From Bacillota bacterium (GTDB lineage: Bacteria; Bacillota; Ch66), in the NCBI GenBank assembly GCA_013178045.1, contig JABLXP010000001.1, forward strand, positions 96,780 through 160,779: a DNA stretch of 64,000 nucleotides. Reading direction: 5' to 3'. Shown here piece by piece: positions 60,960 to 63,483 of the stretch. Every line of letters starts with the position of its first letter. Within the stretch, counting starts at the first letter, position 1. The notes under the pieces were generated by a model that was given only the letters and a program-made list of their open reading frames with translations, searched no databases and was not told the origin of the DNA. A program made the translations under genes and the position numbers.

Positions 60960-60988
60960 TTGACAACCCTGATAAAAAAGAATAGAAT
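60960..60988 (+). promoter_or_regulatory. Sigma-A promoter downstream of recA
   Basis: TTGACA, a 17-nt spacer, then TAGAAT. Confidence 0.5.
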
Positions 60989-61204
60989 GGAGGATGGGAG
61001 AAACTGGACTTTGGAATACTTCCTACCACTGAGCGGGTTTCTTATATAGATAAAAAACTATACTCTACCAGAACAGGCTGGTGGGGATTTTTAGCGGTTT
61101 TTTGGAGATATAAGAAAAAGAGCAAAACTCTGGCTTTGAGTCACGAGGAACAGCCTACCCGTGTTTATGTTGCTTATAAACAGTGGAGGAAAGTTTCTAA
61201 ACGT

Positions 61205-61233
61205 AACCGAGTTTCTACTCGGTTTAATTTTTT
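61205..61233 (+). terminator. Rho-independent terminator or attenuator immediately upstream of the rny RBS
   Basis: AACCGAGT-TTCT-ACTCGGTT followed by TAATTTTTT. Confidence 0.55.
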
Positions 61234-61279
61234 GTCTAGCAAACCTAGACCTATTTCTATGACAAGGAGGTGAAACTAT

Positions 61280-62812
61280 ATTATCAATTATTTAATTGGG
61301 GCAATACTTCTAGTTATTGGTGTTCTGATTGGATTTCTGGTCCGTAAGGCTTTAGCGGAGGCCAGGATCAATTCAGCGGAAGAAGCTGCCCGAAAAATTA
61401 TTGAGGAAGCCGAGAAAGAGGCAGAGGCCAAAAAGCGGGAAGCGATCCTGGGGGCAAAAGAGGAAATTCACCAACTCCGTTCTGAAGCCGAGCGGGAAAA
61501 CCGGGAGCGCCGGAACGAGCTGCAACGGTTGGAACGCCGCTTGTTGCAAAAGGAAGAAACGCTCGATCGCAAGATGGAGGGCCTGGAGCGCAAAGAAGAC
61601 GCTTTGCAAAGAAAAGAAGCCGAGGTTGACCGGCTCAGAGAGGAGTTGGCGCGAATCCATGAGCGGCAGCTAACGGAATTAGAACGTTTGTCCGGGTTAA
61701 CCTGGGACGAGGCTCGCCAGTTGCTTTTGAGTAAGGTTGAGGATGAAATTAAGCATGAGATTGCTGTCATGATCAAGGATATGGAGACTCAGGCCAAAGA
61801 AGAGGCGGAGAAAAAGGCGAGAGAAATCATTACCCTGGCTATTCAACGCTGCGCCGCTGATGTTGTGGCCGAGACCACTGTATCAGTTGTGGCTTTACCG
61901 AACGATGAGATGAAGGGGCGGATTATTGGGCGTGAAGGACGGAATATCCGTACACTCGAGACCCTGACCGGTATTGACCTGATTATCGATGATACACCGG
62001 AGGCCGTGATTCTTTCCGGTTTTGACCCGATCAGACGGGAAATAGCTCGACTGGCTCTGGAAAAACTAATTTTGGACGGGCGAATTCACCCGGCTCGTAT
62101 TGAGGAGATGGTGGAAAAAGCCCAGAAGGAAGTTGACCAGAAAATCCGGGAAGAAGGAGAACAGGCTGCGTTCGAGACAGGGGTTCATGGTCTGCATCCC
62201 GAACTGATTAAGTTACTCGGGCGGCTGAAGTACCGAACCAGTTATGGCCAAAATGTTTTAAAGCATTCAATTGAAGTATCCCATTTAGCCGCGGCCATGG
62301 CTGCTGAACTTGGTGCTGATGTGCAATTGGCAAAACGAGCGGGCCTTCTTCATGATATCGGTAAGGCAGTTGACCACGAAGTCAGTGGTCCCCACGTCAA
62401 TATCGGTGCGGATCTGGCCAAGAAATATCGAGAGGGGCCCGAGGTAATTCATGCGATTATGGCCCACCACGGTGATATTGAACCTCAGACTATTGAGGCG
62501 GTTCTGGTACAGGCGGCTGACGCTATCTCGGCAGCCAGACCAGGAGCACGCCGGGAGACCCTTGAAGCCTACATCAAACGGCTTGAGAAACTAGAAGAAA
62601 TCGCGGATTCTTTTGAAGGCGTCGAAAAATCATACGCTATTCAGGCGGGGCGGGAGATCCGGATTATGGTTAAACCTGATAAGGTTGATGATGCAACCTC
62701 AGTGCGCATCGCCCGCGATATCGTTAAGAAAATTGAAAGCGAACTAGAATACCCCGGGCAGATTAAGGTTGTGGTAATCAGAGAGACCCGGGTGGTTGAT
62801 TACGCCAAGTAA
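61280..62812 (+). CDS. rny: Ribonuclease Y (N-terminal TM anchor, coiled coil, KH and HD domains), apparently initiating at a non-canonical ATT/ATC codon
   Basis: KH ([15 protein letters not shown]) and HD ([17 protein letters not shown]...LLHDIGK) domains. The frame is open back to the stop at 61271-61273 and encodes a conserved TM helix [25 protein letters not shown] at 61266-61271. The first ATG/GTG/TTG in frame is at 61529. Confidence 0.8.
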
Positions 62813-62937: not shown

Positions 62938-63483
62938 ATGACCGAAAGGAAGGCGACCACTACTGTGTACATAAAAACTAGGACGGTGCATGCCGGCTCC
63001 GATAGCGTTGAACTCTTGACATCAATTATGATGCGTTACCCGGAAGTTGGGACAATTAATTTTGAACCAGCCAGACGACTACTAAAGTTTACTTTTATTC
63101 TCTCACAAGTGGTAACGAATAAGGAGATTGATTTATTCCGGGAAAAGCTGGTCACTATGGTTGATGCTTATAATCATTTAGAGGGCCGGGAACCAGGTGT
63201 GGTCGAAGTGACAGCTACTTTTTGTAAACAGTTAACACTCTTGGAAATTAGTCGAGACATCGAGTCCCTGGATTATGACGAAATTGCCTTATTAATGGCC
63301 ATCCTGCACCAGCAATTTGGTTCCCTGATTATGACCGAGGAGAGCGAGGGGATGCTGGAAGAGGAAATTCTCTTGCAGGAAGACTTGATCCGACAGATGC
63401 TAGAGAGCTTAAGGTGCTGTGAACAAGAAAAGAAACTGGTTGCCTTTCGTGAAGAGGGCCGCGTTCTGGTATTCAATAAATAG
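62938..63483 (+). CDS. Hypothetical protein between rny and ymdB, start uncertain
   Basis: Long ORF (track 62818-63483) whose 5' end contains the rny terminator, so the true start must be internal, for example M at 62938. No family recognised. Confidence 0.35.
   Translation: MTERKATTTVYIKTRTVHAGSDSVELLTSIMMRYPEVGTINFEPARRLLKFTFILSQVVTNKEIDLFREKLVTMVDAYNHLEGREPGVVEVTATFCKQLTLLEISRDIESLDYDEIALLMAILHQQFGSLIMTEESEGMLEEEILLQEDLIRQMLESLRCCEQEKKLVAFREEGRVLVFNK

Follow-up and report, generated by a model that had tools for sequence, protein, structure and literature searches.

The rny Locus and Its Initiation Region

The DNA analyzed here, referred to throughout as the window, is a stretch of 64,000 nucleotides (nt) from a Bacillota bacterium (GenBank assembly GCA_013178045.1, contig JABLXP010000001.1, positions 96,780 to 160,779), and its forward strand encodes RNase Y (rny) downstream of recA and upstream of ymdB. 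RNase Y is the main enzyme initiating mRNA breakdown and paces mRNA turnover in Firmicutes; in Bacillus subtilis its dosage is tightly controlled. The rny locus includes a leader with a predicted promoter and a terminator-like hairpin, an extended Shine-Dalgarno (SD) sequence, and a coding region with all of the domains expected of RNase Y, and it has no ATG, GTG, or TTG at the point where the conserved N terminus begins (Table 1). The first-pass annotation of this DNA had proposed that translation of rny initiates at a non-canonical ATT or ATC codon, a proposal that is supported by the relatives, the spacing, the SD, and the coding signature of the N terminus described below.

Table 1. Features of the rny locus, in positions of the window
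Feature	Position	Strand	Detail
Predicted sigma-70-type promoter, TTGACA-17 nt-TAGAAT	60960-60988	+	11/12 consensus matches
Structured 5' leader	60998-61200	+	5' strand (~60998-61033) pairs with ~61178-61200, just before the hairpin
Inner leader helix, TTCTTATA with TATAAGAA	61039-61046 with 61109-61116	+	Encloses a hairpin at 61063-61086
Terminator-like hairpin, AACCGAGT-TTCT-ACTCGGTT then TAATTTTTTG	61205-61234	+	Inside the rny leader; possible attenuator
Extended SD, AAGGAGGTGA	61264-61273	+	10-nt match to the complement of the 16S rRNA 3' end
Most likely rny start codon, ATT	61280-61282	+	9 nt past GGAGG; spacers of relatives
Alternative start codon, ATC (GenBank annotation)	61283-61285	+	12 nt past GGAGG; NPV26009.1
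rny coding sequence, 510 codons from ATT	61280-62812	+	Membrane anchor, coiled coil, KH, HD; TIGR03319, Pfam
N-terminal transmembrane helix	61286-61342	+	From translation; followed by RK
First in-frame canonical codon, TTG	61529-61531	+	Picked by gene callers; without SD

The rny frame is closed upstream by an in-frame TGA (61271-61273), as found by reading the sequence, in a six-frame list of open reading frames (ORFs), and by direct translation, and the codons that follow are AAC TAT ATT (61280) ATC (61283) AAT TAT TTA ATT GGG. The first in-frame ATG, GTG, or TTG is the TTG at 61529, 83 codons past the ATT; the GTG at 61270 belongs to another frame. A canonical codon first appears in the rny open frame at 85 codons, which makes rny an outlier among the long plus-strand frames of the window; the others mostly reach a canonical codon within about 25 codons, with a maximum of 44. 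The first canonical codon of the rny frame that also has an SD is codon 149. Translation and the ORF list bear out the earlier statement that no canonical codon occurs between the stop and residue 84, and reading of the sequence confirms a GGAGGT at 61266-61271, 8 nt ahead of the ATT and 11 nt ahead of the ATC. Counted from GGAGG, the ATT lies at 9 nt and the ATC at 12 nt.

This GGAGGT is part of the extended SD AAGGAGGTGA, which ends in the in-frame TGA terminating the upstream frame. Its duplex with the 3' tail of 16S rRNA is calculated at -17.7 kcal/mol, the third strongest among 44 window genes. Across the loci surveyed below, the rny SD averages -16.8 kcal/mol where the start is non-AUG and -16.6 kcal/mol where it is canonical, as compared to -10.9 kcal/mol for ymdB and -11.8 kcal/mol for recA in the same loci. 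The rny SD is exceptionally strong regardless of start codon.

Coding Status of the RNase Y N Terminus

Translated from the ATT, the rny product scores 810 bits against TIGR03319 (cut-off 454), with residues 8-510 aligned to profile positions 5-514. In Pfam it matches RNase_Y_N at residues 5-194 (positions 4-200 of the 201 in the profile), KH_1 at residues 205-261, and HD at residues 326-418. The membrane anchor and the coiled coil, both conserved, are encoded by the 83 codons between the ATT and the TTG at 61529.

In the closest relative (locus L001, 89% protein identity), 29 of these first 83 codons are identical, 42 differ synonymously, and 12 differ non-synonymously; the differences are distributed over the three codon positions as 10/4/46. 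Judged by this comparison, the N-terminal codons of rny are under strong purifying selection, that is, they form a translated region. Both this pattern and the RNase_Y_N match agree with the first-pass annotation, which had recognized in these codons the conserved RNase Y N terminus, a transmembrane helix followed by a coiled coil. Moreover, a 2-nt insertion or deletion relative to L001 falls exactly between the SD and the ATT, so the reading frame is conserved only from the ATT onward and the coding boundary is marked there.

Conservation of the Start Region among Relatives

The start region of L001 reads GAGGAGGTGAAATA ATT ATC AAT TAC TTA ATT GGG, with an in-frame TGA six codons ahead of the ATT and no canonical start. 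Closer relatives (>78% identity) were obtained by exact protein look-ups, and four of them, at 81-83% identity, share a design in which the SD is followed by ATT, ATC, or ATA (ATH). From the SD to the candidate start these loci read TAGGAGGTGAAGGTT ATT (L084), TAGGAGGTGAAGG ATT ATA (L085), AAGGAGGTGACGGAC ATC (L086), and AAGGAGGTGAAGACA ATT (L087). Ahead of the membrane helix, L001 and L085 are free of in-frame canonical codons; the sole canonical candidates in L084, L086, and L087 are the GTG of the SD itself or a GTG far upstream that lacks SD spacing. ATT, ATC, or ATA is kept at 7-9 nt in all five closest relatives.

A wider survey covered, among the matches listed, 80 GTDB representative genomes with an rny homologue at 64-78% identity, the source genome of the window not being one of them. 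The conserved SAEEA motif served as the anchor in each locus, the last GG[AG]GG core was located, and in-frame candidate codons 4-13 nt downstream were recorded. Of the 77 distinct rny initiation regions found in GTDB among the matches listed, 44 contain only ATT, ATC, or ATA (once CTG) at a spacer of 5-12 nt. Eleven of these, the window included, lack an in-frame canonical codon both upstream and in the next seven codons downstream; in 21 the sole alternative is a GTG inside GGAGGTG, at zero spacing from the SD; nine are ambiguous, with a canonical codon at most seven codons downstream; and in three a canonical codon occurs far upstream, without SD spacing. In sister lineages the SD-internal GTG is out of frame or is cut off by a stop (AGG AGG TGA, or the TAA directly before the ATT in L076). 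Lineages differ in the frame that the SD occupies relative to the ORF but agree in the SD-to-ATH distance. In an independent set of 80 metagenome loci, comprising 65 distinct regions, 32 of the regions show the same non-AUG pattern. The pattern extends over all Negativicutes sampled and several lineages of Clostridia.

The spacers are narrowly distributed. Among rny loci with a single ATT, ATC, or ATA candidate, the distance after GGAGG is 8 nt (19 loci), 9 nt (7), 7 nt (1), or 6 nt (1), and the nearest candidates in the metagenome set lie at 8 nt (26), 9 nt (4), or 7 nt (2). Canonical rny starts show a wider spread, from 6 to 13 nt. The comparison of rny 5' regions in related genomes that the first-pass annotation had suggested thus comes out in favor of its proposal, with ATH kept after the same SD in all five closest relatives and 26 of the 28 single-candidate spacers at 8-9 nt.

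Two further searches were made in this context. The non-AUG rny genes are not depleted of internal ATG, GTG, and TTG codons, which number on average 2.95 per 83 codons, as compared to 2.46 in canonical-start genes; the run of 83 codons free of them in the window is at the low end of the range and is no general feature. The lineage-specific start region, searched for as an exact pattern in JGI metagenomes, gave no match.

Alternative Readings of the Start Region

The start codon could be the ATC at 61283 instead of the ATT at 61280, or both codons could be used. The NCBI pipeline (PGAP) chose the ATC, since the annotated 509-amino-acid (aa) product (NPV26009.1, P0001, "MAG: ribonuclease Y," from a metagenome-assembled genome [MAG]) begins M-NYLIG, and ATT-ATC tandems recur in L001, L010, L059, and L069, where a second near-cognate codon could add initiation events. 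However, the ATC lies 12 nt from GGAGG, and a spacer of 10 nt or more occurs in 0 of the 28 + 32 loci counted by single or nearest candidate. In L001 the ATT has a spacer of 7 nt and the ATC one of 10 nt, the latter again outside the range of 6-9 nt; because only the ATT falls within this range in both the window and L001, it is favored over the ATC. We therefore regard the ATT as the likelier start, with the possibility that both may be used, and we consider the annotated ATC, alone or together with the ATT, to be improbable.

Alternatively, ribosomes could reach the ATT by termination and reinitiation, or by translational coupling, from an ORF at 61136-61273 or from a mini-ORF at 61259-61273, both of which end at the TGA at 61271, with a restart 6 nt further on. 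The upstream frame does end inside the SD, the mini-ORF ATG-ACN-AGG-AGG-TGA is common to the window and L001, and Heliomicrobium has ATG TAA immediately before its GTG start. However, neither upstream ATG has its own SD, the 45-aa ORF is not conserved and is interrupted by several in-frame stops in L001, and the mini-ORF is missing in the relatives at 81-83% identity. The frame of the SD relative to rny also varies among lineages at constant SD-to-ATH spacing. Both upstream ORFs, lacking an SD and conservation beyond L001, were rejected, and coupling is very unlikely. A profile search with the upstream 45-aa frame gave no family match. Programmed frameshifting, stop read-through, or selenocysteine insertion at the TGA at 61271 was likewise rejected, as an upstream coding ORF continuing into rny is not conserved.

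Two sequence details may be recorded beside these candidates. The four-codon mini-ORF of the window, ATG ACA AGG AGG TGA (61259-61273), overlaps the SD. In Heliomicrobium modesticaldum (CP000930; L090, positions 595-603), a minimal start-stop ORF, which gives this gene another uncommon initiation region, lies between the extended SD and the annotated GTG of rny: GGAGGTGAAA ATG TAA GTG.

It is still less plausible that the protein begins at the TTG at 61529, which would yield a 427-aa cytosolic RNase Y without a membrane anchor. This TTG is the first canonical codon and is used by Prodigal-type calls (P0003), but no SD precedes it, and the 83 codons upstream show the 10/4/46 coding signature and match the RNase_Y_N profile from position 4. 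The first-pass annotation had named an anchorless RNase Y starting at 61529 as an outcome that would overturn its proposal; the codon differences to L001, 42 of them synonymous and 12 non-synonymous, exclude it, and the TTG is not the real rny start.

Finally, the idea that a canonical start was lost, through an error of sequencing or assembly or through recent mutation, leaving a mis-assembled gene or a pseudogene, is the default suspicion when a start codon is missing in any single MAG and had been left open as an error or frameshift by the first-pass annotation, but its probability is negligible, because the canonical start is likewise missing in the relatives at 81-89% identity (L001 and L084-L087, which keep ATH after the same SD) and in many other lineages, the frame is intact with its N terminus under strong purifying selection, and the sequence is the same in two further assemblies. 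The latter are Logan assemblies of the same species, compared over 541 nt around the start: the first is identical throughout and may share reads with the MAG, and the second (L002), which is independent and comes from a different run, differs by one synonymous single-nucleotide polymorphism far from the start and is identical in the start region.

Gene Specificity and Evolution of the Probable Non-AUG Start

The weak start codon is specific to rny. In the same loci, 44 of 45 ymdB genes and all 54 recA genes start at a canonical codon, so that only one of these 99 control starts is non-canonical (rny versus controls, Fisher's exact p ~3e-19, uncorrected for shared ancestry). The single case is ymdB of L025 (Paenibacillus ginsengarvi), which apparently starts at ATT and has no in-frame canonical codon (GAGGGGGAGACATCC ATT CGT ATC TTA TTC ATC GGC GAC).

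In a neighbor-joining tree of RNase Y proteins, the start-codon trait follows clades. Non-AUG rny is found in every Negativicutes locus sampled (Veillonella, Selenomonas, Acidaminococcus, Sporomusa, Pelosinus, and others); the Pelosinus locus L012 is ambiguous, as an in-frame ATG precedes its candidate by one codon, at a spacer of 4 nt. It is found as well in the clade of the window together with Syntrophaceticus, in Syntrophomonadaceae, in Thermosediminibacteraceae/Thermovenabulum, and in most of a Symbiobacteriaceae-like group. Canonical rny starts occur in Desulfitobacteriia and most Peptococcaceae-labelled MAGs (ATG or TTG), in Lachnospiraceae (GTG), and in Paenibacillus (ATG). From this distribution, the design of an extended SD followed at 7-9 nt by ATT, ATC, or ATA is evidently inherited and maintained in the Negativicutes sampled, the window's clade, Syntrophomonadaceae, Thermosediminibacteraceae, and others.

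By parsimony, there were at least 17 changes among ATT, ATC, ATA, and CTG and only about eight switches between non-AUG and canonical codons, a result that is supportive and not decisive because the RNase Y tree is rough and codon homology approximate. As one third-base change to G would give ATG, and yet such switches are few, the comparison suggests that the weak rny start codon is maintained by selection.

Among the canonical-start lineages, the Lachnospiraceae-type rny (L064, L070, L073-L075, L081, L083, and many of L137-L168) has a nearly invariant start region, AAGGAGGTGCTCCT GTG, in which a small AGGAG/CTCCT inverted repeat could mask the SD.

Comparison with Known Non-AUG Starts

Weak non-AUG start codons combined with a strong SD have long been known for infC and pcnB of Escherichia coli (established; cited in PMC13009471 and PMC1805508). 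Conserved AUU or AUA starts in Staphylococcus aureus include infC (AUA), cvfC1 (AUU), and ccpN (AUA), all with extended SDs, and these genes, together with an AUA start of citZ in a strain lineage, yield ~10-30% of the output of AUG (PMC13009471). The AUU or AUA start of infC in E. coli, B. subtilis, and S. aureus gives output below that of AUG and is sensitive to discrimination by initiation factor IF3 (PMC1805508, PMC13009471).

The rny gene of the window resembles infC in combining a conserved near-cognate AUH start (AUU, AUC, or AUA) and a strong SD in a central gene-expression gene. Unlike infC, whose product IF3 discriminates against its own start codon and so forms a direct autoregulatory loop, it encodes, according to TIGR03319 and Pfam, RNase Y; infC-type autoregulation, in the sense of a product that discriminates against its own start codon, was not found. 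The first-pass annotation had likened rny to the infC-type autoregulated genes, and this comparison holds for the device of a weak codon with a strong SD but not for the loop, which needs IF3. In rny, any dependence on IF3 would act as an input of the translation machinery and not as self-control.

The likeness to ccpN (AUA), cvfC1 (AUU), and pcnB (AUU) extends to the extended SD-anti-SD pairing, the optimal spacer, and the conservation of AUH in orthologues. Unlike these genes, rny is not among the four non-canonical sites reported in PMC13009471, and its pattern, known here from sequence, spans classes and orders. On the same basis, rny would join infC, pcnB, ccpN, and cvfC1 in one class: no canonical start fits its N terminus, a near-cognate codon stands at SD spacing, and the arrangement is conserved and gene-specific.

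The rny gene of B. subtilis starts at AUG and has an SD of -17.5 kcal/mol, among the strongest in that genome, and ribosome occupancy at this SD has been proposed to block RNase J1; in a mutant with an AUC start, regulated expression persists at a much lower level (PMC10303841). The same gene in the window shares the long 5' untranslated region and the very strong SD (-17.7 here versus -17.5). Unlike in B. subtilis, where the codon is AUG, the weak codon is the natural state here. In the window, the leader contains a conserved terminator-like CCGAG hairpin as well as a helix closing its 5' and 3' ends. Masking of the SD or start by local structure, as proposed for B. subtilis, is unsupported in the window, where the fold of 61230-61330 has a z-score of +0.57.

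Proposed Mechanism and Meaning

These observations indicate that rny is very probably a complete and functional gene translated from a near-cognate AUH codon after an extended SD, most likely the AUU at 61280 and less likely the AUC at 61283. In the proposed mechanism, the long SD pairing (AAGGAGGUGA, ~-17.7 kcal/mol) would position the 30S subunit such that the AUU, at the optimal spacing of 9 nt, occupies the P site, where it would be read by the initiator tRNA as formylmethionine. The weak codon would lower the initiation rate, with the result that less RNase Y is made, and by analogy with other AUU and AUA starts the rate may be sensitive to IF3 proofreading. The strong SD would keep the start site recognizable and occupied, compensating for the weak codon and providing specificity. 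Initiation at the AUU itself, a reduced output, and an IF3-dependent or autoregulatory role are what we infer from this arrangement.

Several points weigh against this reading. Literature searches returned no ribosome profiling, toeprint, or N-terminal peptide for rny initiation at AUU, AUC, or AUA in any organism. In 21 of the 44 non-AUG loci, dismissal of the in-frame SD GTG relies on the zero-spacing rule and on homology to lineages in which this GTG is out of frame or stopped. The loci were picked for their similarity to the window protein and share ancestry, which makes the proportions and p-values purely descriptive. The choice of ATT over ATC is drawn from spacing statistics only, and GenBank uses ATC. 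Any regulatory meaning, be it IF3 sensing, limitation of a toxic membrane nuclease, or protection from RNase J1, is a matter of inference.

If rny does initiate at AUH, the conservation of this start would mean that many lineages restrict RNase Y synthesis at the step of translation initiation, where it may also be regulated. Among these lineages are Negativicutes of medical and ecological importance, such as Veillonella and Selenomonas. We raise only tentatively the further possibility, which we think more doubtful than not, that the weak AUH is an ancient, selected throttle that in whole lineages (all Negativicutes sampled, Syntrophomonadaceae, Thermosediminibacteraceae, and the clade of the window) ties RNase Y synthesis to the fidelity of initiation, meaning the availability of IF3 and initiator tRNA, together with the conserved leader as an attenuator or a target of RNase Y. 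If this hypothesis is correct, a cis-regulatory module with two layers would set the overall capacity of the cell for mRNA decay, and annotation hides this module because gene callers choose the SD GTG or an internal TTG.

Annotation of rny Starts in Databases

The non-AUG start is already present in some GenBank annotations. In addition to the ATC of NPV26009.1, the GenBank protein NPV92276.1 (L085) starts at ATA, and RNase Y of the isolate Zhaonella formicivorans (WP_227767803.1) is annotated with an ATT start. Full-text literature searches found no paper mentioning a non-canonical start for rny or RNase Y. The non-AUG start of rny is thus an ordinary mechanism, unexpectedly broad in its distribution, and so far undescribed.

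Other annotations choose a different codon. A Prodigal-type call for the window gene (P0003) gives 427 aa from the TTG at 61529, and P0006 and P0020 are likewise called from an internal codon; P0005 and P0007 are called from a far-upstream GTG, and the Methylomusa rny is annotated from the GTG inside the SD. Public RNase Y N termini are accordingly miscalled in these entries (P0003, P0005, P0006, P0007, and P0020; L084 and L089), as truncated proteins of 427, 470, or 503 aa, as extended proteins of 536-538 aa, or as proteins starting at the SD GTG. Systematic miscalling of the RNase Y N terminus in protein databases affects predictions of localization and topology.

The Conserved rny Leader

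The recA-rny interval of 290 nt constitutes a conserved leader, with the predicted rny promoter ~290 nt upstream of the ATT. The five closest relatives all keep the promoter sequence CTTGACA-17-TA[GA]AAT without change. The conserved leader is present also in L001, L004, L007, L013, L024, L032, L047, L058, L063, L079, and L084-L090.

The best-conserved element in sequence is the hairpin, the only part recovered by a sequence-based alignment of the leader across lineages. Its arms, CCGAG and CTCGG, are invariant in the 14 long-leader relatives aligned. A regular-expression search for the hairpin motif, in which CCGGG was also allowed, detected it in 30 loci that also have a promoter-like site and an SD. 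It always lies between those two, and its distance to the SD is 17-75 nt, or 17-45 nt if one locus is set apart from the other 29. These loci belong to Heliobacteria, Thermincola, Peptococcaceae, Syntrophomonadaceae, Thermosediminibacteraceae, and Sporomusa-type Negativicutes. The hairpin resembles an attenuator or a processing determinant and may be a processing element of RNase Y or RNase J1.

Structure is also predicted for the leader as a whole, whose fold in the window has a z-score of -3.16. RNAalifold applied to six relatives identified some compensatory pairs in the leader, and the duplex between its 5' and 3' parts has a z-score below -2 relative to shuffled sequences in 16 of 28 loci, with sequences that differ among lineages. 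The consensus fold of the 5' leader element alone is weak and shows no covariation. Searches for Rfam families in the leader gave no match at E <= 1 in the window and none at E <= 0.1 in eight relatives.

Downstream of rny, the window encodes a conserved 181-aa ORF (62938-63483, plus strand) between rny and ymdB that has no Pfam or NCBIfam match. Its positional counterpart in L085 shares 39% identity with it, and similar-sized ORFs without a Pfam match occupy this position in L086 and L088-L090.

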